Below are positions 2,868 through 63,960 of a stretch of 64,000 bases of DNA, piece by piece. Origin of the DNA: an uncultured Aquimarina sp. (GTDB taxonomy: Bacteria > Bacteroidota > Bacteroidia > Flavobacteriales > Flavobacteriaceae); NCBI GenBank assembly GCA_947500545.1, contig CANMSO010000013.1, positions 24,491 through 88,490 of the forward strand, read 5' to 3'. The position numbers and the translations under genes are program-made. Each line of letters starts with the position of its first letter. Position 1 is the stretch's first letter. Below the pieces are notes generated by a model. It was not told the origin of the DNA and did no database searches. It was given only the letters and a program-made list of their open reading frames with translations.

Positions 2868-2956
2868 AATTATTGTTATTACCAAAATTTAGGGGCAAAG
2901 ATACGAAGAATGTATGTCTATAAAGGTGCTAAACAGAAAATTATGTGTAATTATTG

Positions 2957-3970
2957 TTATAAGATGTTAACTTCTGTTTCTAATTTAATCTCGAATTTTT
3001 CAAGAATTTTTTTTTGAATTTTCTCTGACAAATCAAGTATTTCTTTACCTGTTGCATTGTCATGATTCACCAAAACCAAAGCTTGTTTTTTATGAACTCC
3101 TGCGTCGCCCCATCGTTTTCCCTTGAAACCAGTTTGCTCTATAAGCCATCCTGCCGGTACTTTAATGTTGTTTTCATCAATTTTATAAAACGGAATGTCA
3201 GCATATGAATTTTGGAGTTTAGTAAACAAATCTTTAGATATAACAGGGTTTTTAAAAAAACTACCACTGTTGCCAATTTTTGAAGGATCAGGAAGTTTAC
3301 TTTTCCTGATTTGAATAACAGCCTCAGATATATCTTTAATAGTTGGAGAAGTAATGTCTTTGTCTGCTAAAGCACTTTCTATTGCTCCGTATTTTATATT
3401 GATCTGATGGTTTTTTTTACTTAGTTTGAATGTTACTTTTGTAATTATAAATTTGCCTTTGGCTTCATTCTTAAAAATTGAATTACGATATTCAAATTTG
3501 CAATCTTGATTTGAAAAAGTGTGTTTTTTTCCTGTATTTATTGCAATTGCTTCACACGATATTAAGGTGTCTTTAAGTTCTACTCCGTAAGCACCAATAT
3601 TTTGGATGGGTGCGCTTCCAACATAACCAGGTATAAGTGACAAGTTTTCTAATCCGCCATAATCATTAGTAATGCAATACTGTACAAAATCATGCCAATT
3701 CTCTCCTGCATTTGCAGATAGAACTACAAAATTTTCGGATTCTTCAATAACAGTAATTCCTTTTATAAGAATATGTATTACTAATGCATTAATGTCTTTT
3801 GTTAATAACATATTGCTACCGCCACTAAGAATAAACAACTCTTTGTTTGCGTATTTGAAAAGTGCATCTTTTAGCTCTGATTCTGAAGTAATTTTGATAT
3901 ACTCAGTTGCAGTAACATCTATTCCGAAGGTGTTGTGTTTTTTTAAAGACTTATTGTATTCAATTTTCAT
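2957..3970 (-). CDS. murB: UDP-N-acetylmuramate dehydrogenase
   Basis: HNTFG, GGSNML, APIQNIGAYG, GNSGSFFKNP, LETEV motifs. Confidence 0.97.
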   Translation of the reverse strand: MKIEYNKSLKKHNTFGIDVTATEYIKITSESELKDALFKYANKELFILSGGSNMLLTKDINALVIHILIKGITVIEESENFVVLSANAGENWHDFVQYCITNDYGGLENLSLIPGYVGSAPIQNIGAYGVELKDTLISCEAIAINTGKKHTFSNQDCKFEYRNSIFKNEAKGKFIITKVTFKLSKKNHQINIKYGAIESALADKDITSPTIKDISEAVIQIRKSKLPDPSKIGNSGSFFKNPVISKDLFTKLQNSYADIPFYKIDENNIKVPAGWLIEQTGFKGKRWGDAGVHKKQALVLVNHDNATGKEILDLSEKIQKKILEKFEIKLETEVNIL

Positions 3971-5160
3971 TAATCTTCATATTTTTCCAAAGCCAACCTT
4001 AATATATTTATCGCTTTTTTAAGATCTCTTCGATTTATAACATATGCTATTCTTACCTGATTTGTTCCCACATTTGGGCTAGAATAGAACCCCGAAGCGG
4101 GTGCTAACATAACTGTTTCTTTATTGAAATCAAATTTATCTAAAAGCCATTGTGCAAAATCTTCTGAATCTTTAACAGGTAATTCTGCAATGCAATAAAA
4201 AGCTCCTCTCGGCATAGAAACTTTTACCCCAGGTATTTCTTTAAGTCCTGCAACTAGTGTGTCTCTTCTAGCTTTGTATTTTGCAACGGTTTCTTTATAA
4301 TAAGATTCTGGAGCTTCTAAAGCTGCTTCACTTGCAATTTGGGCAAGAGTAGGAGGGCTTAATCTTGCTTGTGCAAATTTCATTGCTGTCTCGATAACAC
4401 TTTTGTTTTTGCTAACCATGCATCCTATCCTTGCACCACACATGCTATATCTTTTTGATACTGAATCTACAACAATGGCGTGGTCATCCAGACTCTTTTC
4501 TTGAAGAATTGAGTAATGCTCTGATCCATCGTAAACAAATTCGCGATAGACCTCATCAGATATTAAAAATAGATCATACTTGATAGCCAATTTAGCTAGT
4601 TGCTTAATTTCTTCCTTGCTATACAGGTATCCAGTAGGATTTCCAGGATTGCAAATCAAAATGGCTTTGGTTTTTTTCGTGATGAGTTTTTCGAATTCAT
4701 CGATTGAAGGTAGTGCAAATCCTGTATCTATACTAGAAATAACAGGAACAACCTTAACATTAGATTGGGTAGAAAAACTATAATAATTTGCATAAAATGG
4801 CTCTGGTACTATAATCTCATCTCCAGGATCCGTTATGCTGCCCATAGTAAAAATAAGCGCTTCACTACCACCTGTTGTTATCAGAATATCATCAGAAGAA
4901 ATTGTAATATCATGTTTAGCATAATAGCTAGCCAATTTCTTTCTAAAGCTTTCAAATCCAGCAGAATGACTGTATGCAAGAACATCTAGTTTATTATTTC
5001 GGACAGCTTCAATTGCCTCTATAGGTGTTTTTATATCGGGTTGACCTATATTAAGGCGATATATATGCTTGCCTTCTTTTTCTGCTTTTTCTGCAAAGGG
5101 AACCAATTTTCGAATTGGAGATTCTGGCATTGCTTTCCCTTTGCTTGATACTACTGGCAT
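3970..5160 (-). CDS. PLP-dependent class I/II aminotransferase (aspartate aminotransferase-like)
   Basis: LNIGQPD, CNPGNPTG, DEVY and SVSKRYSMCGARIG (PLP lysine). Confidence 0.92.
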   Translation of the reverse strand: MPVVSSKGKAMPESPIRKLVPFAEKAEKEGKHIYRLNIGQPDIKTPIEAIEAVRNNKLDVLAYSHSAGFESFRKKLASYYAKHDITISSDDILITTGGSEALIFTMGSITDPGDEIIVPEPFYANYYSFSTQSNVKVVPVISSIDTGFALPSIDEFEKLITKKTKAILICNPGNPTGYLYSKEEIKQLAKLAIKYDLFLISDEVYREFVYDGSEHYSILQEKSLDDHAIVVDSVSKRYSMCGARIGCMVSKNKSVIETAMKFAQARLSPPTLAQIASEAALEAPESYYKETVAKYKARRDTLVAGLKEIPGVKVSMPRGAFYCIAELPVKDSEDFAQWLLDKFDFNKETVMLAPASGFYSSPNVGTNQVRIAYVINRRDLKKAINILRLALEKYED

Positions 5161-5265
5161 CTGTTATATGGTTTAAAAAATAAATAGGGGTAAATTTCTT
5201 AAAATATTTAAGAAATAGATATATAATTAAGATGAATTTTCAACTATTTTCCTATATTTAGTGGA

Positions 5266-6654
5266 ATGAAGATTTTATTATTAGATTTTTGCCATTTTCT
5301 TAGAAATAAGGTTCTAGTATTGTTTTTGTGTTTCAGCTTTACTGTTTTTTCTCAAGGAGCCTTCAAATTACCTTCTGGGGCAAAAGATGGGAAAATTAAG
5401 TTTGAGCTTGCAAATAACCTAATTATTATTCCTGTATTTGTTAATGGTGTTGAGCTTTCTTTTATCCTGGATTCGGGTGTTGGATCAACAATTATTTTTA
5501 GTGTTGATAATAAAAGTTCTTTAGAACTTAAAAATGCTTCAAAAATTTACCTCAGGGGATTAGGAGATGATGAGCCTGTAGAGGCTATTAAGTCTGTTAA
5601 TAATGAATTTAAAATAGGGAATGCAACTAGTTCGGATCATACAGTTTATCTGGTCTTGGATGAATCTATTAATTTCTCTCCCAGAATGGGTTTCCCAATT
5701 CATGGTATTATAGGATATGATTTTTTCAAAAACTTTATATTAGATATTAATTATACAAAAAGGGTTATAAAAATGAATGAGCCCTCGTCGTATAAATATA
5801 AGAAATGTAAAAAATGTTATGAGACTAATATTAGTTTTGAAGAGCAAAATAAAAGACCATATGTTAAGGCAAAATATAAATCAAAGAATGGCTTTATAGA
5901 TATTATATTGTTACTAGATTCTGGGTCAGGATCCTCATTATGGTTGTTTGAAAACAAAGAAAAAGGTATTCAGGTTTCAGAAAATTCATTTAGAGATTTT
6001 TTGGGGAAGGGTTTTAATGGAGATATTTATGGGCAAAGAACCAAAATCGAAGAGCTTCATCTGGGTGATTTTGTAATGAAAGAAGTTACTACTGCTTTTC
6101 CTGATTCAATCTATATACAAGGTATACCTCTTGATAGGCGACAAGGCTCTCTTGGGGGTAATGTTTTGCGTAGGTTCAATATGATTGTAGATTACCCTAG
6201 TCAAAGAATATCTTTTAAAAAGAATAGTTTTTTCGAAAAACCTTTTCATTATAATATGAGCGGACTTACCATTCAGCATAGTGGTTTTACAACAGTAAAG
6301 AATACCGATGACACTAAAATTTATAGAAGAAGAAATAAAAAGGTAATTGAAAAAGATAGATTGTATCTTGGTTTTAATAGAATAGTAACGGAAAAAACTT
6401 TTGAGTTGTCTAATAATTTTGTGTTACTACCAAAATATGAGATTTCTGATGTTAGACCTGGTTCACCAGCTGATATAGTAGGTTTAAGAAAAGGTGATAT
6501 TATACTAGAAGTAAATAGCCGAAAAGCATATAATTACCAATTATCTGAGCTTAATGATCTTTTTTATTTTGAAGAAGGAAGAAAGATTAAAATGAAAATA
6601 GATAGGTTAGGAGTAGAAATCACCTATGAATTTTACTTGAAAAAAGTCATCTAA
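5266..6654 (+). CDS. Aspartyl protease with two retropepsin-like domains and a C-terminal PDZ domain
   Basis: FILDSG...GIIG and LLLDSG...GSLG motif pairs; VRPGSPADIVGLRKGDIILEVN PDZ signature. Confidence 0.85.
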   Translation: MKILLLDFCHFLRNKVLVLFLCFSFTVFSQGAFKLPSGAKDGKIKFELANNLIIIPVFVNGVELSFILDSGVGSTIIFSVDNKSSLELKNASKIYLRGLGDDEPVEAIKSVNNEFKIGNATSSDHTVYLVLDESINFSPRMGFPIHGIIGYDFFKNFILDINYTKRVIKMNEPSSYKYKKCKKCYETNISFEEQNKRPYVKAKYKSKNGFIDIILLLDSGSGSSLWLFENKEKGIQVSENSFRDFLGKGFNGDIYGQRTKIEELHLGDFVMKEVTTAFPDSIYIQGIPLDRRQGSLGGNVLRRFNMIVDYPSQRISFKKNSFFEKPFHYNMSGLTIQHSGFTTVKNTDDTKIYRRRNKKVIEKDRLYLGFNRIVTEKTFELSNNFVLLPKYEISDVRPGSPADIVGLRKGDIILEVNSRKAYNYQLSELNDLFYFEEGRKIKMKIDRLGVEITYEFYLKKVI

Positions 6655-6692
6655 TTAAAAAAGGGTTCTACGTTAGTAAAACCCTTTTTTAA
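6655..6692. terminator. Bidirectional intrinsic terminator
   Basis: TTAAAAAAGGGTT / AACCCTTTTTTAA inverted repeat between convergent genes. Confidence 0.8.
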
Positions 6693-6713
6693 TAGTAATT
6701 TATAGGATACTGA

Positions 6714-7109
6714 TTAATTCTTTTTTTCAAGAACACTCTGATCTAAAACAGTTCCTTTAATTTTTATTGCTTTTGTAGCTTCTCCAGCATTCGAATAAAC
6801 GGTAATCGTTTTTCGAATAGGGCCAACTCTCTTAGTGTCATATTTCACCTCTATTACTCCCGTTTCTCCCGGTGCAATTGGGTTTTCTGGCTTTTTAGGA
6901 ATTGTACATCCACAGCTAGAATACACTCTTGATATTATCAATGGTGCATTTCCAGTATTTGTAAATTCAAATTTACGAACGCCATCACTACCTTTGGCGA
7001 TCTCACCATAATCGATAACTTCAGTTTTAAATTTTATTTGTGCTTGGTCTTGGGCATTTAATGTAGCTCCAAGAAATCCAATAAATAAAATCATCATCAC
7101 TTTTTTCAT
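6714..7109 (-). CDS. DUF1573-type Ig-like secreted protein
   Basis: Signal peptide, then FEFTNTGNAPLII and SCGCT motifs. Confidence 0.88.
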   Translation of the reverse strand: MKKVMMILFIGFLGATLNAQDQAQIKFKTEVIDYGEIAKGSDGVRKFEFTNTGNAPLIISRVYSSCGCTIPKKPENPIAPGETGVIEVKYDTKRVGPIRKTITVYSNAGEATKAIKIKGTVLDQSVLEKKN

Positions 7110-7197
7110 AATGTAGGTTTTTATTGTGGGTAAAAGTAGTTACTTTTTATCCAACTTCAAAATTGCAAAAGACTTTCAAGTTGTCGGATATAATAAT

Positions 7198-7205
7198 TAC
7201 TTTTG
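7198..7205 (+). promoter_or_regulatory. -7 promoter box of valS
   Basis: TACTTTTG, 30 nt before ATG 7236. Confidence 0.6.
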
Positions 7206-7235
7206 CACTCTAAATTCCAAAAATCGGACCAAAGT

Positions 7236-9866
7236 ATGGCTTTAGCTACAAAATATGATGCAAAATCGGTAGAAGAAAAATGGTATAGCTACTGGATGGA
7301 TAATAATTATTTCCATTCTGAAGTAGATGAACGGGAGGCGTATACTATCGTTATTCCCCCTCCAAACGTTACTGGGGTTTTGCATATGGGGCATATGCTT
7401 AATAATACTATTCAGGATGTGTTAATACGTAGAGCCCGTCTTAAAGGCTTTAATGCTTGCTGGGTTCCGGGTACTGATCATGCCTCAATTGCCACAGAAG
7501 CAAAAGTGGTTGCCAAATTAAAGGAGGAGGGTATTAATAAAAATGATCTTACTCGTGAAGAGTTTCTTGAACATGCCTGGGAGTGGACTCATAAGCATGG
7601 TGGGATTATTTTAGAACAGTTGAAAAAGCTAGGAGCTTCTTGTGATTGGGAGCGAACTGCTTTTACTATGGATGACAATTTGTCGGCTTCTGTAATAAAG
7701 GTCTTTGTAGATTTGTACAATAAAGGACTTGTTTATAGAGGATATAGAATGGTAAATTGGGATCCGGAAGCCAAAACCACTTTATCTGATGAAGAGGTAA
7801 TTTATGAAGAGAAACAAGGGAATCTATATTACTTAAAATATAAAGTAGAAGGAAGTGAGGATACACTTACCATAGCTACCACACGTCCCGAGACAATTAT
7901 GGGGGATACCGCCATCTGTATTAACCCAAATGATTCACGATTTACACATTTAAAAGGGAAGAAAGCGATCATTCCTATTGCAAACCGAGCTATTCCTATA
8001 ATCGAGGATGAGTATGTAGATATGGAGTTTGGTACTGGATGTCTTAAAGTTACTCCAGCTCATGACCCTAACGATAAAGTTCTTGGAGATAAACATAATT
8101 TAGAAGTTATTGATATTTTTAACGATGATGCTACACTTAATTCTTTTGGATTGCATTACGAGGGCAAAGATCGTTTTGTAGTAAGGAAAGAAATCATAAA
8201 TGAATTAGAGTCTTTAGAGGTTTTAGAAAAAACAGAAACCCATCTTAACAAAGTTGGGACCAGTGAGCGTACAAAAGCGGTGATAGAACCAAAATTAAGT
8301 GACCAATGGTTTTTGAAAATGGAGGGGCTTGCTAAACCAGCGTTAGAAGCAGTTTTAGAAAAAGATGTAAATCTAGTTCCAGAAAAATTTATTAATACCT
8401 ACCGTCATTGGATGGAGAATGTGAGAGATTGGAATGTATCACGCCAATTGTGGTGGGGACATCAAATTCCAGCTTATTTCTATGGTGATGGGAAAGAAGA
8501 TTTTGTAGTTGCAGAGAGTAGAGAAGAAGCCCTGATTCTGGCAAAGAAAAAAACAGGAAATGATTCTTTAGTAGATTCAGATCTTAAACAAGATCCAGAT
8601 GCTTTGGATACTTGGTTTTCGTCGTGGTTATGGCCAATGAGTGTGTTTAACGGTATTTTAGAACCCGATAATAAAGAAATTAATTACTACTATCCTACTA
8701 ATGATCTTGTGACTGCACCCGAAATTTTATTTTTCTGGGTCGCTCGTATGATTATTGCAGGGTATGAGTATAGAAAAGAAAAGCCTTTTACGAATGTATA
8801 TCTAACGGGTATAGTAAGAGATAAACAGAGGCGCAAGATGTCTAAATCTTTAGGTAATTCACCAGATCCAATAGATTTAATAGCTCAATACGGTGCAGAT
8901 GGTATTAGAGTTGGAATGTTACTAAGTTCTCCTGCCGGCAATGATCTAATGTTTGACGAGGATTTGTGCAAACAAGGTAGTGCATTTGTAAATAAAATAT
9001 GGAATGCCTTTAGGCTTATCAAAGGTTGGGAAGTGGATTCAAGTATTGATCAACCCGAAGCTTCGGCTATTTCAATACAATGGTATAAATCCAGGTTTCA
9101 AAATGCATTAATCGATTTAGAAGACAATTATTCAAAATATCGAATTAGTGATGCATTAATGACCACCTATAAATTGATATGGGATGACTTCTGTAGCTGG
9201 TTGCTTGAAATGATTAAGCCAGCTTATCAGAGCCCGATTGATGCTAAAACATATCAAGAAGTAATTACAATTTTAGAAGAAAACCTTAAGATTTTACACC
9301 CTTTTGTTCCTTTTATTTCAGAAGAGATATGGCAACAAATTACTGAAAGAACACCTAATGAAGCTTTGATAATTGCTGATTGGCCAAAATCTGATGCAAT
9401 TAATGAGAGTTTGATAAAAGAATTTGAAACTGCCTCAGAGGTAATTTCAGGTATTAGAACAATAAGAAAAGAAAAGAACATTTCTTTTAAAGAAACTATA
9501 GAGTTGTGTGTTTTAAATAATGAAAAAGGCGGTACTACTTTTGACTCGGTTATCAGTAAACTTGGAAATCTAACTTCCTTGAATTATGTTGATGGAAAAG
9601 TTGAAGGAGCACTTTCTTTTAGAGTTAAGTCAAATGAATATTTTATTCCGATTTCCGGAGCAATCAATGTAGAAGATGAAATTAAAAAACTCTCAGAAGA
9701 ACTAAAATATACCGAAGGGTTTTTAAAATCTGTTCAGAAGAAATTACAAAATGAGCGTTTTGTTAATAATGCGCCAGATCAAGTTATTGCTAATGAAAGA
9801 AAGAAAGAAGCTGATGCAGAAGCAAAGATAGCTACTCTAAAATCCAGCTTAGAGAGTTTGCAGTAA
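7236..9866 (+). CDS. valS: Valine--tRNA ligase
   Basis: [13 protein letters not shown] (HIGH), KMSKS, C-terminal coiled-coil arm. ATG 7236 preferred over the TTG start in the track. Confidence 0.98.
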
Positions 9867-51175: not shown

Positions 51176-51568
51176 TTATTTGTTAATGGTTTTTGGTTGG
51201 TTGTTTTCATTTTTATTTAATGTCTGATAATAATTTATGAACCCATTTAATAACTTTTTGCAGCTTATTATTTGATCTAATAATGCTCTATGTTCATTTG
51301 TTTGAATATAATCTTGATCTAAAGCTAGGTAAGATTGAGTTTCTAATTCATACAAAGAACCTCTAGAAATATAAAAAAAATGTATGCTCTCTTTAGAAGT
51401 TTTTCTTCCACAACCTTCGGCTATATTTGAAGGGATAGAAACAGCACATCTTCTCATTTGACTAGTTAATCCATACATTTCATCTTTTGGGAATTTCTTA
51501 GTTACATCATAAAGATTATTAACCAAAAGTCTTGTTTCTTTCCATACTTTTAATTCGGTGTATTCCAT
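51176..51568 (-). CDS. Four-helix-bundle protein (23S rRNA-IVS protein family)
   Basis: LKVWKE, FPKDEMYGLTSQMRRCAVSIPSNIAEG, SRGSLYELETQ. Confidence 0.92.
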   Translation of the reverse strand: MEYTELKVWKETRLLVNNLYDVTKKFPKDEMYGLTSQMRRCAVSIPSNIAEGCGRKTSKESIHFFYISRGSLYELETQSYLALDQDYIQTNEHRALLDQIISCKKLLNGFINYYQTLNKNENNQPKTINK

Positions 51569-54825: not shown

Positions 54826-55392
54826 TTACATTTTTAATTCTACGGCTAATTCAAATTCATCACTGATTGCTTTATCTCCTAAATTATCGAAGAAACTTCC
54901 TGATCCGTATTTGATATCGTATTTAGTTCTATCTACTTTAAGCGTAGTAGAAGCTGCATCACCATTTAATGCTAAAACGAATTCAATTGGGTTTGTTTTG
55001 CCTTTAATTGTAAGGTCACCAGCAATTTTATAACCTTCACTTGTTTTTTTAGCCTTGGTAACTACTAATTTCGCAGTTTTGTGATTTTTGATGCCAAAGA
55101 AATCATCAGAGCTAAGGTGTCCTTCTAGTTTTTCTTTTCCTTTTCCAGCTTCAAGATCAGTTACAGCAAGAGTTGTCATATCAACAGTGAATTCTCCTTT
55201 TGTGATATTTTCACCATCAAATACAAGGAAACCTTCAGAAAGATTTAATGTTCCTGTATGTGACCCTGTTACTTTGGTACCAGTCCAGTTAATTTTACTC
55301 TCTGAAGCCTTAATTTCTTTTTTCTGAGCAAAAGTAGACGCTGTTGTAATAATGGCAATGGCAACGATTAATGATTTAAGTGTTGTTTTCAT
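54826..55392 (-). CDS. YceI-family lipid/polyisoprenoid-binding protein
   Basis: Signal peptide; SKINWTG, HLSSDDFF, GDLTIKG, VDRTKY. Confidence 0.92.
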   Translation of the reverse strand: MKTTLKSLIVAIAIITTASTFAQKKEIKASESKINWTGTKVTGSHTGTLNLSEGFLVFDGENITKGEFTVDMTTLAVTDLEAGKGKEKLEGHLSSDDFFGIKNHKTAKLVVTKAKKTSEGYKIAGDLTIKGKTNPIEFVLALNGDAASTTLKVDRTKYDIKYGSGSFFDNLGDKAISDEFELAVELKM

Positions 55393-55431
55393 GATTTTTA
55401 AAAATTTAGGTATTTATGTTTATGTTAATGA

Positions 55432-55890
55432 TTAATTCGGATTTCTTAATTTATTCAAGAGGTCATTTAAGTGTATCAAATCTTCTGAGGAAAGCCCAGA
55501 CGTTAATCTGTTTTCGAAATCTGTCATCAAAGGACTTACTTTATCAAGAAAATTTAGACCTTCTTTGGTAATAGTGATTTCAACTTTTCTTCGATTGGAT
55601 TTACATGTCACTCGTTTTGCATATCTTTTATTAATAAGTTTATCTACCAATCTGGTGGTGTTGCTCATTTTGCTAACCATTCTTTCTTGAATAGTGCATA
55701 GATTAGCGGGTTTTTCTTTTTGTCCTTTTAGAATTCGTAATACATTAAATTGTTGAATAGAAATGTCGTGTGTTTTTAATTCAAGATTAATTTTTTCCAT
55801 TACCCAATTTTCTGTGTATAAAAGATTTACAATTACTTTTTTGGGTAAAGGAAGTTCAGTTTCTGTTTTTATGATCTTTTCTATATTCAA
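55432..55890 (-). CDS. MarR-family transcriptional regulator
   Basis: SIQQFNVLRIL, TRLVDKL, NRRKVEITIT.G; TTG start. Confidence 0.92.
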   Translation of the reverse strand: MNIEKIIKTETELPLPKKVIVNLLYTENWVMEKINLELKTHDISIQQFNVLRILKGQKEKPANLCTIQERMVSKMSNTTRLVDKLINKRYAKRVTCKSNRRKVEITITKEGLNFLDKVSPLMTDFENRLTSGLSSEDLIHLNDLLNKLRNPN

Positions 55891-56130
55891 TTGTATCTAC
55901 AATATTTGTATATACAAATGTATGTTGATTAATGTTTCAAAAATTATAAAATGATATTAATTCTTTGTTAAAGTTAAAATTTAGGTGGTGTTTAATAGTA
56001 TTATTGCCACAGAAAATAGAGTTCCTATGAGATTAAACATTTGTAAAGATATTCTGAAAATATTTAGATAAAACATAGAAATCTTGTTAATTTTCTTTTG
56101 GTTAGTTAACGGTTTTAATAAATTAGTAGT

Positions 56131-56652
56131 ATGTCGAGATCGATTTTATATATTATGTTAGTAATTTTTTTTACTAATTGTAAAGGGGAGCAACAAGTGG
56201 CATTAGACGCTACTGATGTTTTTAAAAGTAAAGGTGTTGAGATTCCCATGTATGATTTTGAAAATTTTGAACCATTACTAAAGGTAAATGATGGAAAAAC
56301 TCGTGTAATCAATTTTTGGGCTACCTGGTGTAAACCTTGTGTAGCAGAATTGCCTTATTTTGAATTAATTAATAGTAGGTATCCTGATAATGAGGTTGAA
56401 GTGATACTTGTTAGTTTAGATTTGCCAAAACATGTAGAATCTAAGTTAATTCCATTTGTTAAAAGGCAAAATATACAGAGTAAAGTTGTTTTATTGGATG
56501 ATCCAGATGCAAATACTTGGATCCCTAAAGTGAATAAGAATTGGTCAGGTTCTATACCGGCCACCATTATATATAAAGGAAATACTGTCAATTTTTATGA
56601 AAGATCATTTACCTATAATGAGTTGGAAAAAGAATTGAAAAAAATGCTATAA
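56131..56652 (+). CDS. TlpA-type thioredoxin-like lipoprotein
   Basis: Lipobox-like FFTNC; NFWATWCKPC. Confidence 0.9.
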   Translation: MSRSILYIMLVIFFTNCKGEQQVALDATDVFKSKGVEIPMYDFENFEPLLKVNDGKTRVINFWATWCKPCVAELPYFELINSRYPDNEVEVILVSLDLPKHVESKLIPFVKRQNIQSKVVLLDDPDANTWIPKVNKNWSGSIPATIIYKGNTVNFYERSFTYNELEKELKKML

Positions 56653-56690
56653 GGAAGAATTAATACGAATACAATACAAAATTAATACCT

Positions 56691-57317
56691 ATGAAAACTT
56701 TAAAGATTCTTGTTGGAGTGGCTTTTATAATTGCAATTAGTGCTTTTGCAATTGATAAAGTTTCTGTTTCTAAAGCAGATGATGGATATGTAATAGGGGA
56801 TACGGCTACAGATTTTAAACTAAAAAATATAGACGACTCTTTTATTTCTTTGGCGGATTATAAAGAAGCTAAAGGATTTATTGTGATTTTCACCTGTAAT
56901 CATTGTCCCTATTCTGTAGCCTATGAGGACAGAATCATAGAACTAGACAAAATGTTTAAAGTAAAAGGGTATCCTGTTATTGCTATAAACCCAAATAACC
57001 CAAAGGCCTATCCAGATGATAGCTTTGACAATATGAAGGTGCGAGCTAAGGAGAAGGGGTTCACTTTTCCGTATTTATTTGATGATGGACAAAAAATATA
57101 CCCTCAATATGGTGCAACCAAAACCCCTCATGTTTATGTTTTAGAAAAAACTTCAGAAGGTAATATGGTTAGATATATTGGGGCGATAGATAATAATTAC
57201 AAAGATGCTTCTTCTGCAAATGATAAATACGTAGAGGATGCTGTTAATGCACTTCTGAAAGGAGAAAAAGTTCCTGTCGAAATCACAAAAGCCATAGGTT
57301 GTAGTATAAAAGCCTAA
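56691..57317 (+). CDS. Secreted AhpC/TSA-like thioredoxin-fold protein
   Basis: FTCNHCPY, YGATKTPH, YIGAIDN, AIGCSIK. Confidence 0.88.
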   Translation: MKTLKILVGVAFIIAISAFAIDKVSVSKADDGYVIGDTATDFKLKNIDDSFISLADYKEAKGFIVIFTCNHCPYSVAYEDRIIELDKMFKVKGYPVIAINPNNPKAYPDDSFDNMKVRAKEKGFTFPYLFDDGQKIYPQYGATKTPHVYVLEKTSEGNMVRYIGAIDNNYKDASSANDKYVEDAVNALLKGEKVPVEITKAIGCSIKA

Positions 57318-57437
57318 TCTTTTCTCTGTTTTTTATATAAATGATATGTATAATTTATACATTTCATAAAGGACTCTTATATTTGTAAGGAATACAAATA
57401 AAGATAGTCCAAAAATTTAATAACACACGTTTTATAA

Positions 57438-57752
57438 ATGGCAGAAGATATCACACAAGAAGAATGGCAAGAACTTATCACAAAAGATGATAATGCAGTA
57501 ATTTTAGATGTTAGAACAGAAGAAGAAGTAGAAGATGGTTTTATTCCCAATATGCTTAACATAGATATTCGTTTAGGACAAGGTTTCCTAGACGAAGTAG
57601 AAAAACTGGATAAATCCAAAAATTATTATATCTATTGTCGTTCCGGAGCACGTAGCGCTCAAGCTTGTACGTTAATGAGTCAAATGGGATTCGAAACTAC
57701 CTATAATTTAATAGGTGGTTTTATGAATTGGAATGGCGAAACTGCAGAATAA
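57438..57752 (+). CDS. Rhodanese-like protein
   Basis: ILDVRT and YCRSGARS; -7 box TATATTTG at 57378-57385. Confidence 0.92.
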   Translation: MAEDITQEEWQELITKDDNAVILDVRTEEEVEDGFIPNMLNIDIRLGQGFLDEVEKLDKSKNYYIYCRSGARSAQACTLMSQMGFETTYNLIGGFMNWNGETAE

Positions 57753-57762
57753 TCATAATTAT

Positions 57763-58161
57763 ATGAAATTAAAACCACTTTTATTAATTGCTATTTTCTC
57801 CTTGGCATTGTTCAGCTGTAAGAAAGCAGAGGATTCTTCTTCTGTTATAGAACTTATTACAGTTGAAGATATGGATTCACTATTAGAAATGGGCAAAGTA
57901 CAGCTTGTTGATGTTCGTACTCCAGATGAGTATGCAGAGGGTCATATTGAAGGGGCGTTGAATATTAATTTTAACGACGATAACTTTAAAGATCTTATCT
58001 CTAAGGTGGATAAATCTAAACCGGTGGCTGTATATTGTGGTCGTGGTGGTAGAAGTGGTAAGTGTTCTGCATATATGAAAAAAGCAGGATTCACCAAAGT
58101 TTATGACCTTGATGGTGGTATTACCGAATGGAAATTTAAAGGGAAAAAATTGGTTAGATAA
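57763..58161 (+). CDS. Rhodanese-like lipoprotein
   Basis: Lipobox LFSC; LVDVRTPDEY.GHI and YCGRGGRS. Confidence 0.9.
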   Translation: MKLKPLLLIAIFSLALFSCKKAEDSSSVIELITVEDMDSLLEMGKVQLVDVRTPDEYAEGHIEGALNINFNDDNFKDLISKVDKSKPVAVYCGRGGRSGKCSAYMKKAGFTKVYDLDGGITEWKFKGKKLVR

Positions 58162-58179
58162 ATAATCAGATATAGACAA

Positions 58180-58217
58180 AAACAAAAAAGCTCCTCATTT
58201 GAGGGGCTTTTTTGTTT
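58180..58217 (+). terminator. Intrinsic terminator
   Basis: AAACAAAAAAGCTCCTC-attt-GAGGGGCTTTTTTGTTT. Confidence 0.82.
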
Positions 58218-58463
58218 TAATGATATAGTATGATTCCATTTTTATAAGTGTATAAATTTTGCACACTCAATTATCAATAGATTTACCTTAATAAGTAGAA
58301 AACGAATACCAGAGTTTATCCCAATTAAGAATATATATACCGATTCGTAGGGTAAACCTCCTAATACAAAGTCTAGCCCGCTGTATGTAAATTCTAACTA
58401 GTGCGTTGTTGATGTTTCAAGTATTTTGAATTTCAAATATTAACAATTAAAACCTAGTAAACA

Positions 58464-59219
58464 ATGAAAAACGTAATTAACCTTTTAGTAATCGCCATGC
58501 TATTATTGATGAGCTGTGAAACAGAGCCTACATCTCCAGATGAACAATTGTTTGAGAAAGAATTGAATGAGGCAGCTGTTTTTAAAGCCTTATTTTTCTA
58601 TTTGGGAGATGAGGTCAAAGCGATTTCTTCTTATGAACAACAAGTAATGTTTTTAGAAAAAAATAAGTTAGAAAACGATGGCTTCATAGAAGATTATGAA
58701 GCATATGCTAACGCATATTTAGAAAAAGTGAAAGAAAGAAACCCTGTGTTTCTGAACCAGCTAAAAAATGCGGTACAAAGTAGAGATTTTGAGCAAATCA
58801 GAGCCTCAATGGTTTATGGAGGTAATCTCATGAGGGCAATAACTAGCATTGATGCCTTAAAAACGATCAAAGATGAAGGCGTTACGAGTAAATTTGCTAA
58901 GCTTAATTTGGAGGCTTATGATTTTACAAATTCTAAAGAATTAGAATTGCTAGTTAATGACTTAAAAGTTATTATCAAAAGAGCAGATCCGACTCCTCAT
59001 CCTGATATTGCGTTTATCTATGCATATCAATGGAACAATATTTATATCTACAATAATATATTAAGTTGGACGTATGCCAATGTTTTGGTTAATGATTTTT
59101 TAGACCTGGGACTTAAGGAAATAGGTGATTATAATCCTATTGGACAGTACGGAGCTAATTCAAATTACGAAAACTACTCTGGTGAAAGACTGATTGAAGA
59201 GATTGCATTTGCTTTTTAA
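58464..59219 (+). CDS. SdpC-like antimicrobial peptide precursor with a lipoprotein signal
   Basis: LLLMSC lipobox-like site; VFKALFFYLG and KVKERNPVFLNQLKNAVQSRD resemble the B. subtilis SdpC pro-domain as recalled; lies upstream of SdpA/B-like genes. Confidence 0.7.
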   Translation: MKNVINLLVIAMLLLMSCETEPTSPDEQLFEKELNEAAVFKALFFYLGDEVKAISSYEQQVMFLEKNKLENDGFIEDYEAYANAYLEKVKERNPVFLNQLKNAVQSRDFEQIRASMVYGGNLMRAITSIDALKTIKDEGVTSKFAKLNLEAYDFTNSKELELLVNDLKVIIKRADPTPHPDIAFIYAYQWNNIYIYNNILSWTYANVLVNDFLDLGLKEIGDYNPIGQYGANSNYENYSGERLIEEIAFAF

Positions 59220-59359
59220 TCACTAATTCTTCTTGGTTTTTGAATTAAGTACAAAAAATAAGAAGAGCTTCACAGTAAATAATAGAAATAAACCTTCCAA
59301 CTTATAAAAGCTGGAAGGTTTACAGATTTCTCAATTTCTATAATCTAAATAATAGTAAC

Positions 59360-59893
59360 ATGAAACATACACTCTTATTCTTTGGGTTTGTGGTGCTAGT
59401 TGGTTTTTTACATCTTAATTTTATTACCACAGTGGGAAATAATGTTATGGATGTGTCAACAAAAGAGAAAAACGTGATTAGGTTTCTCTTTCCACAAGGT
59501 TGGGGGTTCTTCACCAGAAATCCAAGAGAACCAAAATATAAATTGTACCAAATTAAAGAAGGACAATTGCAATTGGTTACTTTTCAAATCACTTCCTCAA
59601 AGAATTATTATGGCCTTTCTAGAAAAGGAAGTCGTATGGGGATGGAAATGCATCGAATAAAAGATAATTTACCACCAACCGACAGTTGGAAATCTTCGAA
59701 GATTCAATTAAGAAACATAGATTTAGATGCGATTTCTTATTCTTGTGTAGACGTGGTATCTAGCTTGTTGTACATAGAAGAAGGAAACTATATACTCAAA
59801 GAATATCACATTACTCCTTGGTCTTGGGCCAAACATCAAAGCCGTTATTCGAAAACGTTTAAATACATTCCATTTCAATTAATAAAATCATGA
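59360..59893 (+). CDS. SdpA-family protein
   Basis: TM helix, then FPQGWGFFTRNPRE and YYGLSRKGSR; PWSWA near the end. Confidence 0.82.
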   Translation: MKHTLLFFGFVVLVGFLHLNFITTVGNNVMDVSTKEKNVIRFLFPQGWGFFTRNPREPKYKLYQIKEGQLQLVTFQITSSKNYYGLSRKGSRMGMEMHRIKDNLPPTDSWKSSKIQLRNIDLDAISYSCVDVVSSLLYIEEGNYILKEYHITPWSWAKHQSRYSKTFKYIPFQLIKS

Positions 59894-60855
59894 TAGCGCA
59901 GTACCAAAATGCTTATACAGAAATGAGCAAACAATTGTTTTCAAACAACCCATTTACCTGGGTGTATGGATTATCCAGAACTACTCTCGCTATATGTTCT
60001 TTGATAACACTCACTTTTAGTGAGACTACTGTATTATTTGATGAAGCTATTTATAATAACCGTCTAAAGGAGGAAATATTCAACCAATACAACTTATTTT
60101 ACCTATTTGGATGGGAGTATTTGAGATATGCCAAAGCTTTGGCAATTTTGTTGTTGTTATTAGTTGCTTCTGGATGGCGCCCACGATTTACAGGGGTGTT
60201 TCAATGGTGGGTCACGGCTAGTTTTTATTATTCATCGAGTATTCTTGAAGGAGGAGATCAGATTGCGATGATTCTTACTTTATTATTAATTCCAGTTACT
60301 TTGTTGGATAATAGGAAATGGCATTGGCAAACTTGTGATCGATTTTCTGAATACAAAAAATTTGTTGGCAATTTGATGTTTGTATCGGTGGCTCTTCAGA
60401 TGTCCTTACTGTATTTAAATGCTGCGATGGATAAAATCTATACTTCTGACGAGTGGAAGGTGGGTAGCGCATTTTATTACTATGTTAATGATGCATTTTT
60501 TAGTTATCCCGATTGGATGGATCCACTAATGATAAATCTGCTTAACAATTCTTTCTTTGTCTCTGCAGTTACCTGGGGTACCATTTTATTAGAACTGATG
60601 CTATTTGGTATTCTTTTTTCTAGTACTAAGAATAAGCGTTTGTTGTTTCCGTTTGCTGTAATGTTTCACTTCGCAATTGTACTGTTCTTAGGATTGTTTA
60701 GTTTCTTTTTTGCAATGTTAGGAGGATTGATATTGTATTTAGTTCCGAAAGAAACTCCAGTACCAAGATTTAAGTTTCAGAAGCCAAGTTTTATTTCGTG
60801 GATTAAGATTTCAGAATTTCTACCAATCCCTTTCCTAAAAAAGAATAGTTTATAA
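59890..60855 (+). CDS. SdpB-family HTTM-like membrane protein
   Basis: ATGA overlap with the upstream gene; NPFTWVYGLSRT, SGWRPR, EGGDQI, QMSLLYLNAA, FHFAI. Confidence 0.82.
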   Translation: MIAQYQNAYTEMSKQLFSNNPFTWVYGLSRTTLAICSLITLTFSETTVLFDEAIYNNRLKEEIFNQYNLFYLFGWEYLRYAKALAILLLLLVASGWRPRFTGVFQWWVTASFYYSSSILEGGDQIAMILTLLLIPVTLLDNRKWHWQTCDRFSEYKKFVGNLMFVSVALQMSLLYLNAAMDKIYTSDEWKVGSAFYYYVNDAFFSYPDWMDPLMINLLNNSFFVSAVTWGTILLELMLFGILFSSTKNKRLLFPFAVMFHFAIVLFLGLFSFFFAMLGGLILYLVPKETPVPRFKFQKPSFISWIKISEFLPIPFLKKNSL

Positions 60856-60911
60856 AAATTTCTAAGAGAAAAATCCTGAAGTACTACTAAATCTATATTG
60901 ACTTCGAAAAC

Positions 60912-60940
60912 AAAAAGCTCCTTATTAGAGAAGCTTTTTT
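60912..60940 (+). terminator. Probable intrinsic terminator after the sdp-like cassette
   Basis: AAAAAGCT ... AGCTTTTTT inverted repeat. Confidence 0.6.
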
Positions 60941-61221
60941 CTTTTTATTTCCAGGGTGGGTAGGAGCGTTTATTAAAGTCCGGTTAATTTTTGTATCTTT
61001 ATTAATAATCTGACCCTCAAATATTTATATAGAATCTAGGTGAATTACCTGTTTTTAAATAAAACCATCGAAAACCCCTTCACAACGAACTAAAAAAGGT
61101 GAGTATTTATTAAAAGTTATGCATAACAAGCCATAATTAGTTCTGTAAATGGAATAAAACCATCGTACTTGACCATTAAATGTGAACTATTTTTAAAGAT
61201 CTTTCTTAATGTTAATAAACC

Positions 61222-63960
61222 ATGGGGGTAAATGACGAAATAAATATTTTTATTGCATATTCTAGAAAGGATGAAAATTACCTTATAGAATTAAAAAAAT
61301 ATGTAATCCCATTAGAACGTAGAAAATCTATTAATTTCTGGTATGATGGTGAAATAAAGCCAGGAGAAGTATGGGAGGAGGAAATAAAAAAACAATTACA
61401 TAAAGCCGATATAGTAATCCTTCTTGTTAGTGCAAATTCTATTGCTTCTGAATATTTTTATGAAAAGGAAGTGGCTGACGCACTAGAGCGGCATAATAAT
61501 AATGAAACCATAGTAATTCCTATTATTTTAAAAAACTGTGCCTGGAACTTAACTCCTCTATTTGATTTACAAGCGCTTCCCAAGAATGGAAAACCCATTA
61601 GCAACTGGAAAGATGATTCAGATGCATATACCTATATAGTTCATAAATTGAATGAAAGGATTGAAACCATTCTCGATAAGAGATTAGAAGTCAAAGATAA
61701 GCAGAAACAAAAAGAGAAAGCTGAAGCAAAAAGAAAGGCTGAAGAAAAACGGAAACAAAAACAGGAAGAGGAGGCTGAAGTAAGAAGACAGGTAGAAGAA
61801 AAGCGGAAACAAAAAGAGGAGGCTGAGTCTAAAAGACAGACGGAAGAAAAACGGAAACAGGAAGAGGAAGCTGAGACGAAAAGACAAACAGAGGAAAAGC
61901 AGAAACAAAAAGAAGAAGCTGAGGTAAAAAGTTCGATTGAGCAGAAACAGTATGAAGTGTCTTGGAGAAGGGTTGAAAAATCCTTTTGGTTATATAAAGA
62001 AGGAAATTTAATTAGTGGTATCGGTAAAACCGCAAGTGCTTGGTTTGATAATGATCTTCTCGTTTTTCATAAGGAAAGTAAAATAACTTATGTTCTTGAA
62101 AATTATAAAAACTTAGCAGATAATAAATTAAGACCGGCAAAAATACTGGGACAACATGAAGTATACTGGAGAGGGCATGATAATTTATATTGGTTATATA
62201 AACAAGGAAATTTAATTAGCTCAGGTGGCAAAACGACCAGTACCTGGTCTGGAAATGATCTTATTGTTTACCATAAAGCTAGCAAAACGAAATATGTACT
62301 TAAGAATTATAGGAATTTGCAGGATAATGCTTTGAGGCCTGCAAAAATATATAATGAGACAACAAGAAATAAAGAGGTATTTGGGATTAAAAAGAAACGA
62401 TACAGAACCTCAATAATAATTGCGGCTATAATCGGAGTTATTATAGGTGTAATATGGATATCTAAAGGTATACGGGATGATTTTGCATGGAAAGACGCAA
62501 CTCGTTTTAATACAATTTATGGATATAAAGTATACCAGAAAAATTATCCAAGAGGATCACACTTTTATGAAGCTCAAAGAAGGATTACTAAAATCGAAAG
62601 TGAAAAAAATGACTGGGATAGATTGTCTTTGCTGAACACCAAAGAAGCTTATGAAGAATATTTGAAAAACCATCCTTATGGGGCTAATGCTTATAATGCT
62701 AAAAAACAAATTGAGGAGATACAAAAAAATGATTGGGAAAGAGCTCTTGCATTAAATACTGCAGATGCCTATAATGATTATTTAAAAAATTACCCAAGAG
62801 GGTCATGGGTATCTGTCGCCAAAGAGAAACTGAAAGCCCAGGTAGAAAAAGAAGCAGACGGAAATCAGGAATTAAAAAAGAAAATCAAGGCTCTACCGGT
62901 CAAGAAAAAAGTGAAAATAACAGGAAATAAGACCGTGAGTGAACAGTATGAAGTGTCTTGGAAGAAATCGGGAAATAAATATTGGTTATATAAAAGGGGA
63001 GTTTTAATTACCGGAGATGGAACTAGTACTTGGTCGGATAATGATCTTCTGGCTTATGACAAAAATAGCAAAATGACTTATCTTCTTGAAGATTATAAAA
63101 ATCTGAAAGAAAATGAGTTAAGGCCTGCAAAAATATTAGGAGACAATGAAGTATACTATAGAGGGACCAAAGATATATATTGGTTGTATAAACAAGGAAG
63201 TTTAATTAATGGAGACGGGAAAACAACATCTTCTTGGTCTGTTAATGATGAACTTGTTTATCACAAGAATAGCAAAATGACCTATCTTCTTGAAAATGCC
63301 GCTAATTTGCTAGATAATAAATTAAGACCTGCTAAAATATTAGGGAAGCATGAGGTATATTGGAGAGGAAACAAAGATACATATTGGTTATATATACAAG
63401 GAAGTCTAATTAGTGGGAAAGGAATAACAACATCTGTCTGGTCTGGTAATGATGCTCTTGTTTACAATAAGAATAGCAAAATGACATATCTTCTTGAGAA
63501 TTGTAAAATACGGAAGGGTAATAAGTTAAGGTCTGCAGAAATATTAGGAAATCATGAAGTGTATTGGAGAGGAGATAAGAATGTATATTGGTTGTATAAA
63601 CAAGGAAGTTTAATTAATGGCGGGAGTGGAAAAACAACAAATTCTTGGTTTGACAAAAACCTTGTTGTTTATCATAAGAATAGTAAAATAACCTATCTTT
63701 TTAAGAACTATACAAATTCGAAGGATAATATGTTAAGACCTGCAAAAATACTAGGCCAAAATGAAGTATACTGGAGGAATGATAAAGGTCAGTATTGTTT
63801 GTACAAGCAAGGAAATATAATTAGTGGAGTAGGGAAAACAAAAACAACTTGGTCCGGTAGTGATTTACATGTTCTTCACCAAGCTAGTGGAATAACTTAT
63901 ATTTTGGAGAACTACAAAAATTTAGCCGATAATACACTAAGGCCCACAAAGAGGCTGTAA
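61222..63960 (+). CDS. TIR-domain membrane protein with a coiled coil and seven ~68-aa repeats
   Basis: TIR motifs IFIAYSRKD, FWYD, SEYFYEKEV and VIPII; E/K-rich linker; TM IIIAAIIGVIIGVIWI; internal repeats. Confidence 0.88.
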   Translation: MGVNDEINIFIAYSRKDENYLIELKKYVIPLERRKSINFWYDGEIKPGEVWEEEIKKQLHKADIVILLVSANSIASEYFYEKEVADALERHNNNETIVIPIILKNCAWNLTPLFDLQALPKNGKPISNWKDDSDAYTYIVHKLNERIETILDKRLEVKDKQKQKEKAEAKRKAEEKRKQKQEEEAEVRRQVEEKRKQKEEAESKRQTEEKRKQEEEAETKRQTEEKQKQKEEAEVKSSIEQKQYEVSWRRVEKSFWLYKEGNLISGIGKTASAWFDNDLLVFHKESKITYVLENYKNLADNKLRPAKILGQHEVYWRGHDNLYWLYKQGNLISSGGKTTSTWSGNDLIVYHKASKTKYVLKNYRNLQDNALRPAKIYNETTRNKEVFGIKKKRYRTSIIIAAIIGVIIGVIWISKGIRDDFAWKDATRFNTIYGYKVYQKNYPRGSHFYEAQRRITKIESEKNDWDRLSLLNTKEAYEEYLKNHPYGANAYNAKKQIEEIQKNDWERALALNTADAYNDYLKNYPRGSWVSVAKEKLKAQVEKEADGNQELKKKIKALPVKKKVKITGNKTVSEQYEVSWKKSGNKYWLYKRGVLITGDGTSTWSDNDLLAYDKNSKMTYLLEDYKNLKENELRPAKILGDNEVYYRGTKDIYWLYKQGSLINGDGKTTSSWSVNDELVYHKNSKMTYLLENAANLLDNKLRPAKILGKHEVYWRGNKDTYWLYIQGSLISGKGITTSVWSGNDALVYNKNSKMTYLLENCKIRKGNKLRSAEILGNHEVYWRGDKNVYWLYKQGSLINGGSGKTTNSWFDKNLVVYHKNSKITYLFKNYTNSKDNMLRPAKILGQNEVYWRNDKGQYCLYKQGNIISGVGKTKTTWSGSDLHVLHQASGITYILENYKNLADNTLRPTKRL
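61720..61929 (+). repeat. ~48-nt imperfect tandem repeat encoding (E/K)EEAExKRQxEEKRKQ
   Basis: About four 16-aa units visible in both DNA and protein. Confidence 0.8.
61951..62352 (+). repeat. Two copies of the ~204-nt coding repeat before the TM helix
   Basis: Unit starts at 61951 and 62155. Confidence 0.85.
62947..63957 (+). repeat. Five copies of the ~204-nt coding repeat after the TM helix
   Basis: Unit starts at 62947, 63145, 63349, 63553 and 63760. Confidence 0.85.

Follow-up and report, generated by a model that had tools for sequence, protein, structure and literature searches.

Does a cassette of three genes in a Gram-negative flavobacterium belong with the sdpABC genes that produce the SDP toxin of Bacillus subtilis, and if it does, what does it make? 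The question is raised by positions 58464-60855 of a stretch of 64,000 nucleotides from an uncultured Aquimarina sp. (contig CANMSO010000013.1; the whole stretch is referred to here as the window, and has a G+C content of 33.6%), which a preliminary description made from the sequence alone had interpreted as an sdpC/sdpA/sdpB-like toxin cassette with neither sdpI nor sdpR nearby. Family hidden Markov models (HMMs) and profile-profile alignment bear out the identification of the cassette. Its main departure from known SDP systems is one that the preliminary description missed, namely that the presumed toxin segment of the precursor is not hydrophobic. As for its role, we favor with moderate confidence a system in which SdpA and SdpB are needed to make a secreted peptide, probably for competition.

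Family membership and architecture of the precursor

The assignment of the second and third open reading frames (ORFs) of the cassette is supported by scores above the cut-offs of the relevant models. ORF2 matches the Pfam SdpA family PF17418 with 62.1 bits (cut-off 25) and NCBIfam TIGR04034 with 66.6 bits (curated cut-off 53.1), and ORF3 matches the SdpB model TIGR04033 with 207.7 bits (curated cut-off 178.4). ORF1, the presumed precursor gene, is matched by the toxin_SdpC model TIGR04032 with an E-value of 3.5e-8 at a score below the cut-off, and a precomputed match to Toxin_SdpC (PF26137) is present on ORF1 and on all five of its word-search homologues; a Pfam search of ORF1 gave no match even at an E-value of 10, in a copy of Pfam that does not include PF26137, such that the Toxin_SdpC label is the precomputed one. 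Alignment by hhalign of the profile of six flavobacterial precursors with that of three Bacillus SdpC paralogues gave a probability of 94.9% (E 4.8e-8, 88 columns), and the aligned region includes the motifs (S)GEE-hFK-hFF-G and NP-x-(Y/F), common to the flavobacterial and Bacillus precursors. By these profile comparisons the ORF1 pro-domain is homologous to SdpC. Because three neighboring genes each match a different model of one system, chance is excluded, and the cassette is, as judged from its sequence, a genuine relative of the SDP family in a Gram-negative flavobacterium, with three protein families in common with B. subtilis sdpABC-sdpRI.

The similarity extends to the design of the precursor. 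SDP is an internal 42-residue fragment, C141-S182, of the 203-residue SdpC, and its production depends on both SdpA and SdpB (PMC6818787). The Bacillus SdpC homologues share their N-terminal three quarters and have a C-terminal toxin segment that is specific to each group (PMC6818787). Alignment of six close homologues gives the window precursor a four-part layout – signal and lipobox, pro-domain, core, and tail – that parallels the secretion signal, conserved N-terminal part, variable toxin segment and short C-terminal extension of B. subtilis SdpC. The window precursor is 45-69% identical to its homologues in the pro-domain and 76-88% in the tail, with only 8-30% in the core, and in nucleotide (blastn) alignments to the syntenic Aquimarina locus L003 similarity is lost only across 58930-59162, corresponding to the core, and returns at the tail. 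A conserved pro-domain and tail around a variable core matches the Bacillus SdpC pattern, and the same exchange of the toxin segment behind a constant N-terminal part is seen in B. subtilis yitPOM/yitQ and other sdpABC groups.

The tail is nearly invariant in the six close homologues (Y-E-N-Y-S-G-E-(K/R)-L-I-E-(D/E)-I-A-F-A-F), and a more general motif, L-x-x-E-x-[LF]-[IV]-x-[ED]-[IL]-A, is found among the final 25 residues in 93 of 100 family representatives as compared to 23% of control windows, as well as in two of the three Bacillus paralogues. When the precursor profile was run with HMMER against 1.84 billion cluster representatives, it yielded 103 relatives at E-values of 1e-3 or below; the Bacteroidota branch amounts to about 100 precursor clusters at 50% identity. 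An AlphaFold2 (AF2) model of the precursor, built from a 90-sequence alignment (predicted template modeling score 0.75), has an all-helical pro-domain with a predicted local distance difference test score (pLDDT) above 90, a core that is left unmodeled (below 50), and a terminal helix that is again confident, at about 95. Judging from this model, the tail helix probably packs against the pro-domain, with the core presented as an excursion between the two.

The precursor begins with a lipoprotein-type signal, with Lys2 and an uncharged hydrophobic stretch ahead of a lipobox, read from the sequence as MKNVINLLVIAMLLLMS followed directly by Cys18 (LLMS-C18). The signal is thus of the signal peptidase II type in the window, as opposed to the ordinary signal of Bacillus SdpC. 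It had been put forward as a peculiarity of this locus; the lipobox is indeed present, but 89 of the 107 precursor family sequences examined have a lipobox-type cysteine and it cannot be counted as peculiar. Cys18 is also the only cysteine of the window precursor, and a disulfide like that formed by the cysteine pair of SDP is therefore impossible. Directly after the cysteine the family consensus reads S-K-[DE]-[DE], with C-x-K-[DE] present in 21 members. This consensus agrees with the K-(D/E)2 form of the Bacteroidetes lipoprotein export signal, which was described by Lauber et al. as K-(D/E)2, Q-A-(D/E)2 or an S-D-D-type sequence just after the cysteine (PMC5080379). The window protein itself reads C-E-T-E-P-T, a non-canonical sequence with two acidic residues and neither lysine nor glutamine. 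Delivery at the surface or by vesicles is therefore plausible insofar as it is compatible with the lipobox and the family consensus, though nothing specific to the window protein points to it; were the peptide excised at both ends, as SDP is, the lipid anchor would be lost.

The core segment and the SdpA and SdpB proteins

The cores described in Bacillus are all hydrophobic, and SDP acts by inserting into the membrane and collapsing the proton motive force. The window core is not hydrophobic, unlike SDP, and this is a property of its clade: cores of the Aquimarina/Lacinutrix clade reach Kyte-Doolittle maxima (19-residue windows) of only 0.15-1.37, whereas 69 of 87 other family representatives attain at least 2.0, indicating a membrane-helix-like stretch in the variable segment. 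The clade cores are instead rich in asparagine (10-28%) and aromatic residues (11-31%), and some contain Asn/aromatic repeats with a period of two residues, such as NWNWNWSWNWNWNWNY and YNYNLNYDLNYNYNYN; examples from relatives are NNWNWNWSWNWNWNWNY in P0008 and YNYNLNYDLNYNYNYNLSYNY in P0011, and the window core has IAFIYAYQWNNIYIYNNILSWTYANVLVNDF. Such a pattern is typical of beta-strand stacking.

The four-base-pair overlap of the sdpA and sdpB genes suggests that synthesis of the two proteins is coupled. In SdpA, a transmembrane helix at the N-terminus (residues 2-27) precedes a mixed alpha/beta domain of about 140 residues (AF2, pLDDT 73), and the motif PQGWGFFT is invariant in the SdpA alignment (A6). 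The window SdpB has about six hydrophobic segments, as expected for a polytopic membrane protein, and shares 37% identity with a member of the SdpB family from Bacillus. A profile of 60 SdpB homologues aligns with residues 172-311 of chains of human vitamin K-dependent gamma-carboxylase (GGCX; E 5.7e-5), such that SdpB Q170, Y175, K182, W189, G192 and Y197 correspond to GGCX Q206, Y211, K218, W223, G226 and Y231; K182 (nucleotides 60433-60435) is conserved in at least 90% of the 60 homologues, and its partner K218 is the catalytic base of GGCX. By profile, SdpB is related to the HTTM superfamily and the vitamin K-dependent carboxylases. The window SdpB itself has no Pfam match at all, including to HTTM (PF05090), even at an E-value of 10, and some SdpB homologues carry a precomputed PF05090 match. 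The taxa that carry SdpB presumably make menaquinone, and we know of no report of carboxylation or any other modification of SDP. SdpB may be an enzyme, possibly one that uses menaquinone, or only a scaffold for a protease.

Other bacterial HTTM proteins offer a point of comparison. MloH is a bacterial vitamin K-dependent carboxylase that functions in malonomycin biosynthesis, and another bacterial HTTM protein, together with an adjacent single-pass DUF5819 partner, is predicted to rebuild the GGCX architecture (bioRxiv 10.64898/2026.08.19.745780). SdpA shares the layout of such a partner – a transmembrane helix and a domain of about 140 residues, encoded beside an HTTM-type SdpB – but a search for DUF5819 in members of the SdpA family gave no sequence match, and the parallel is thus purely architectural.

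Distribution, immunity genes and genomic setting

A genome scan with an alignment of 17 SdpB sequences identified 37 loci that cover Flavobacteriia, Cytophagia, Saprospiria, Chitinophagia and Sphingobacteriia, together with one Myxococcota and one Longimicrobium contig. With purpose-built HMMs, the order precursor-SdpA-SdpB (C-A-B) is recovered in essentially all of the complete loci. The window thus has the order C-A-B where Bacillus has A-B-C, as the preliminary description stated, but it is not peculiar in this regard, as the same organization is found in about 30 loci of Bacteroidota and in one of Myxococcota, and the Bacteroidota cassettes likewise have a lipoprotein precursor followed by SdpA and then SdpB. 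Public annotations by the Prokaryotic Genome Annotation Pipeline and the Joint Genome Institute already label such proteins of Hymenobacter, Flavobacterium, Tenacibaculum, Lacinutrix and others as 'SdpA/SdpB family antimicrobial peptide system protein', and an 'SdpABC-like toxin system' is mentioned for a mobile element of the Flavobacteriaceae member Candidatus Ornithobacterium hominis (Salter et al., PMC6421346). The precursor-first order and the lipoprotein signal are therefore clade-wide traits, and the presence of SDP systems in Gram-negative bacteria was already known. The literature that we searched contains no experimental study of the Bacteroidota sdpC-sdpA-sdpB cassettes, and no description of non-hydrophobic cores, of a lipid-anchored four-part precursor, or of the conserved tail and hairpin.

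Several loci have more elaborate arrangements, with tandem precursors or duplicated cassettes. Locus L009 contains two tandem C-A-B units with similar cores (4707-9588), L022 a C-A-B unit followed by A-B-C (2878-8068), and in each of L013 and L014 a single sdpA-sdpB pair is preceded by two precursor genes that differ from one another. The Bacillus locus L004 (5474-10914) is richer than the textbook sdpABC-sdpRI, with SdpA and SdpB followed by three Toxin_SdpC paralogues interleaved with DsbB and thioredoxin genes, a DCC1-like thiol-disulfide oxidoreductase gene in last position, and genes for a DUF1648 membrane protein and an ArsR-type helix-turn-helix protein upstream. Seven loci, including L014, L017, L022, L031, L033 and L034 (there downstream of sdpB), have near the cassette a gene for a secreted protein of about 460 residues, an alpha/beta-hydrolase or S33/S9-type peptidase (representative match to Hydrolase_4, E 1e-14). 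The window has no such gene. The protein could serve as an accessory enzyme in processing.

The distribution of immunity genes is uneven. In five loci (L026, L032, L033, L037 and L038) an SdpI-type gene encoding 103-119 residues overlaps or abuts the end of sdpB, and the two cassette-linked representatives that were scanned belong to the SdpI family PF13630 (59.7 and 63.4 bits; cut-off 28.2). Other small ORFs encoding multi-pass membrane proteins directly follow sdpB in six further loci, and among the 36 non-redundant loci about two thirds, the window and all of its close relatives included, have no coupled membrane gene. The window thus differs from B. subtilis sdpABC-sdpRI in having neither sdpI nor sdpR, and in the diderm envelope of its host. 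The absence of these genes as first described was confirmed: an HMM of the cassette-linked SdpI proteins searched against all six frames of the 64 kb window found no SdpI-like gene (best E 0.17), no same-strand ORF of at least 60 residues starts within 250 nucleotides after sdpB, and there is no ArsR-type SdpR gene beside the cassette, the nearest regulator being a MarR-type ORF identified through its homologue in the syntenic L003. The suggestion that the lack of sdpI is unusual fares less well. The Bacillus immunity protein differs between paralogous systems, being SdpI in one and YitQ in another (PMC6818787), and given this variation and the many cassettes that have no coupled membrane gene, a missing sdpI is weak evidence of oddity.

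Immunity genes and core type may be connected. Most of the other Bacteroidota cassettes carry a hydrophobic core like that of SDP, and in some of them SdpI or another small membrane protein is coupled; the Aquimarina/Lacinutrix clade has neither. A coupled membrane gene is found in 7 of 21 hydrophobic-core loci and in 0 of 8 others, a difference that is not significant (Fisher one-sided p 0.075), and the core is hydrophobic in all seven of the loci where a coupled membrane ORF occurs together with a full-length precursor. The association of core type with coupling is no more than suggestive.

The features of the cassette and of the genes upstream of it are listed in Table 1. Terminator-like hairpins with T-runs define its left and right boundaries, and a search of Rfam at a permissive threshold returned solely sub-threshold terminator-type matches on these two hairpins. 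An alignment of five upstream regions shows that the 17-nucleotide block ahead of the precursor gene is almost invariant in five cassettes, and it is a candidate for a 5' untranslated or regulatory element. A scan for sigma-70 promoters found 16, as compared to 15.4 expected in shuffled sequences, with a tool that does not cover Bacteroidota promoters. The hairpin between the precursor gene and sdpA has a strong equivalent in the same position in L001, L002 and L003, with stem sequences that differ, and this retention of position with different stems argues for selection on structure. Leaky terminators are common in bacteriocin operons, and we infer that this hairpin acts as a partial terminator or attenuator that would keep the precursor in excess over the machinery.

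Table 1. Coordinates of the cassette, its parts and the upstream cluster, as positions in the window.
Feature	Position	Strand	Remarks
SdpC-like lipoprotein pre-pro-peptide gene (ORF1)	58464-59219	+	251 aa; first in cassette
Signal and lipobox	58464-58517	+	aa 1-18; within precursor gene
Helical pro-domain	58518-58979	+	aa 19-172; within precursor gene
Hypervariable Asn/aromatic-rich segment (core)	58980-59165	+	aa 173-234; begins DPTPHPD; about 60 aa
Conserved C-terminal helix YENYSGERLIEEIAFAF	59166-59216	+	aa 235-251; precursor tail
SdpA family gene (ORF2)	59360-59893	+	177 aa
SdpB family gene (ORF3)	59890-60855	+	321 aa; 4-bp overlap with ORF2
Terminator-like hairpin and T-run AAAAAAGCTCCTCATTTGAGGGGCTTTTTTG	58184-58214	+	ends upstream rhodanese gene; left cassette boundary
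17-nt block TATTAACAATTAAAACC	58438-58454	+	10-26 nt upstream of precursor start codon
Hairpin with 16-bp stem	59288-59323	+	between precursor gene and sdpA
Terminator-like hairpin and T-run AAAAAGCTCCTTATTAGAGAAGCTTTTTTC	60912-60941	+	after sdpB; right cassette boundary
YceI	54826-55392	-	upstream cluster
MarR-type regulator	55432-55890	-	upstream cluster
AhpC/TSA-redoxin protein	56131-56652		lipobox-like N-terminus; upstream cluster
AhpC/TSA-redoxin protein	56691-57317		upstream cluster
Two rhodaneses	57438-57752, 57733-58161		upstream cluster

The cassette behaves as a discrete unit. The closest relatives of its SdpB are from uncultured Aquimarina (81-84% identity), and the left flank of the window – including trp genes, YceI, MarR, two AhpC/redoxin and two rhodanese genes – is syntenic with Aquimarina L003 at about 80-85% nucleotide identity, with synteny ending at 60857, directly after sdpB. 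In another Aquimarina locus, L001, DNA similarity begins at 58437 in an otherwise different genomic context, and L001, L002 and L012 (the latter two from Lacinutrix) have unrelated neighborhoods, with DNA similarity confined to the cassette. The C-A-B cassette is thus found in four different genomic contexts within the close clade, and this, together with the approximately 30 Bacteroidota loci, marks it as a conserved, mobile functional unit of about 2.4 kb.

Several neighboring features deserve mention in their own right. The genes at 54826-58161 form a cluster suggestive of redox or sulfur stress that is syntenic with L003 and probably unrelated to the cassette, as it is absent beside the cassettes of L001 and L002. 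We considered whether its thioredoxin-like and rhodanese genes might be disulfide helpers akin to the DsbB and thioredoxin genes of the Bacillus locus L004, and rejected the idea, since the only precursor cysteine is that of the lipobox and the genes do not accompany the cassettes of L001 and L002. In L003 an extra 1.8 kb lies between the rhodanese gene and the cassette, where the window has about 300 bp; it includes a 262-residue ORF (8572-9360) with no Pfam match and no transmembrane segment. The only gap in the otherwise continuous nucleotide alignment with L003 (51171-51598) contains an ORF of 130 residues (51176-51568, minus strand) between two trp genes, which therefore seems to have been inserted into the trp operon; its product may resemble the '23S rRNA intervening sequence protein' type, a four-helix bundle. 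Immediately after the cassette, and in the place of a LytTR/kinase pair of the syntenic L003, is a plus-strand gene (61222-63960) for a 912-residue protein with an N-terminal TIR domain (PADLOC ThsB1 of Thoeris, E 3.9e-38; Pfam TIR_2, E 4.2e-15), followed by a Lys/Glu-rich repeat region (DNA repeats at 61693-61931) and one transmembrane segment. This protein also has three Y-x-x-Y-L-K-N-(Y/H)-P-x-G motifs and four tandem repeats of 204 bp (68 residues) at 63029-63841, and no ThsA gene is visible between the TIR gene and the end of the window.

The product of the cassette

In the reading that we favor, modeled on B. subtilis sdpABC and yitPOM, the precursor would be exported by the Sec pathway, receive its lipid at Cys18 and be cleaved by signal peptidase II. 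The single-pass SdpA and the polytopic SdpB, as a complex in the membrane, would then recognize the pro-domain together with the C-terminal helix on the periplasmic side of the inner membrane and, by the same analogy, bring about excision of the variable segment, at approximately residues 173-234. The hairpin at 59288-59323 would let more precursor be made than machinery, and any immunity that is needed would be encoded away from the cassette. The released peptide would be rich in asparagine and aromatic residues, and so would probably not act as SDP does. The extreme divergence of the core between orthologous loci that are otherwise about 80% identical fits either antagonism or strain discrimination, and the coupling of SdpI-family genes to sdpB in five other Bacteroidota cassettes shows that the cassettes of this phylum belong to toxin/immunity biology. 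The LytTR response regulators and histidine kinases beside the cassettes of L002, L003 and L012, of a kind that typically regulates peptide bacteriocins, also speak for this reading.

A number of points weigh against this interpretation. The precursor misses the curated TIGR04032 cut-off by far (33.5 bits as compared to 99.2), and the match spans profile positions 12-116 of 172, that is, the pro-domain only. The window core has a Kyte-Doolittle maximum of 0.97 where the family median is 2.42, and does not contain the hydrophobic stretch that defines SDP and YIT. Neither the window nor any close relative has an immunity candidate beside the cassette. Foldseek searches of the PDB with the AF2 models gave no significant match for the precursor (best E 2.6) or for SdpA (best E 0.44), and none of the public sequencing runs contains the stretch. 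To our knowledge no biochemical activity has been demonstrated for SdpA or SdpB in any organism, and the excision step is thus borrowed from Bacillus genetics.

The same observations can be read in other ways. The product might be a matured surface lipoprotein, which SdpA and SdpB modify or fold and which stays lipid-anchored and is flipped to the surface, where an adhesive or amyloid-like Asn/aromatic segment could self-associate in biofilm formation, aggregation or kin recognition. The conserved lipobox (89/107), the agreement of the family consensus with the K-(D/E)2 export signal, the period-two repeats of clade cores such as NWNWNWSWNWNWNWNY and YNYNLNYDLNYNYNYN, the absence of an accompanying immunity gene from every clade locus, and the retention by SdpB of the catalytic-lysine position of an enzyme family are all consistent with such a protein. 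We nonetheless regard it as unlikely: the homologous systems are known to yield only an excised toxin (PMC6818787), a segment that is hypervariable in length as well as in sequence is more in keeping with an antagonistic peptide than with a structural element, the helix that directly follows the core suggests a processing or recognition element, and the CETEPT N-terminus of the window protein is not a canonical export signal. Excision could also yield a strain-specific signal, or pheromone, sensed by two-component systems such as LytTR/histidine-kinase pairs. Genes for a LytTR response regulator and a His_kinase protein adjoin the cassettes of L002, L003 and L012, the core is as hypervariable as in peptide pheromone systems, and no immunity gene is present; but the window cassette is adjoined by the TIR gene and no two-component system, and the pair of the syntenic L003 is encoded on the opposite strand. 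LytTR regulators and histidine kinases are typical regulators of peptide bacteriocins too, so that adjacency does not discriminate, and a core of about 60 residues is long for a pheromone. A signaling role seems to us somewhat less probable still than the surface lipoprotein.

Decay is seen in Lacinutrix neustonica L012 (4564-6998), where two ORFs (5992-6633 and 6618-6998) take the place of an intact sdpB and a premature end of the precursor (...DYDNYSEKN) removes the conserved C-terminal helix, and the window cassette could in principle be an inactive remnant as well. All three of its ORFs are intact, the tail and hairpin are present, and every residue that is invariant in the SdpA (A6) and SdpB (A2, A4) alignments, in which the window proteins are included, is retained, which makes a remnant very improbable indeed. 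Finally, the clade may have swapped the hydrophobic, helix-type SDP core for period-two Asn/aromatic segments that would form amphipathic beta-strands and, whether released or displayed, act on the outer membrane of competing diderm bacteria. We offer this as a long shot. If true, such strands might pair with outer-membrane proteins or their assembly machinery, or self-assemble into beta-rich pores or fibers; this mode of action would be new for any SDP-family product, and would explain why the cassette has no inner-membrane immunity protein.

Studies of the SDP system have been confined to Bacillus, and the locus described here belongs to a large and experimentally untouched Bacteroidota branch with hundreds of SdpB relatives. 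The view across phyla exposes the conserved tail helix, the hairpin, the SdpB lysine and the lipid-anchored precursor, all of which are hard to see within Bacillus, and these provide handles on how the peptide is recognized and cut, and on SdpB as a possible menaquinone-using enzyme. Should the cores prove to be ordinary, the locus would be one more bacteriocin-like cassette; the non-hydrophobic cores rich in asparagine and aromatic residues may nonetheless represent a new class of flavobacterial competition peptide.

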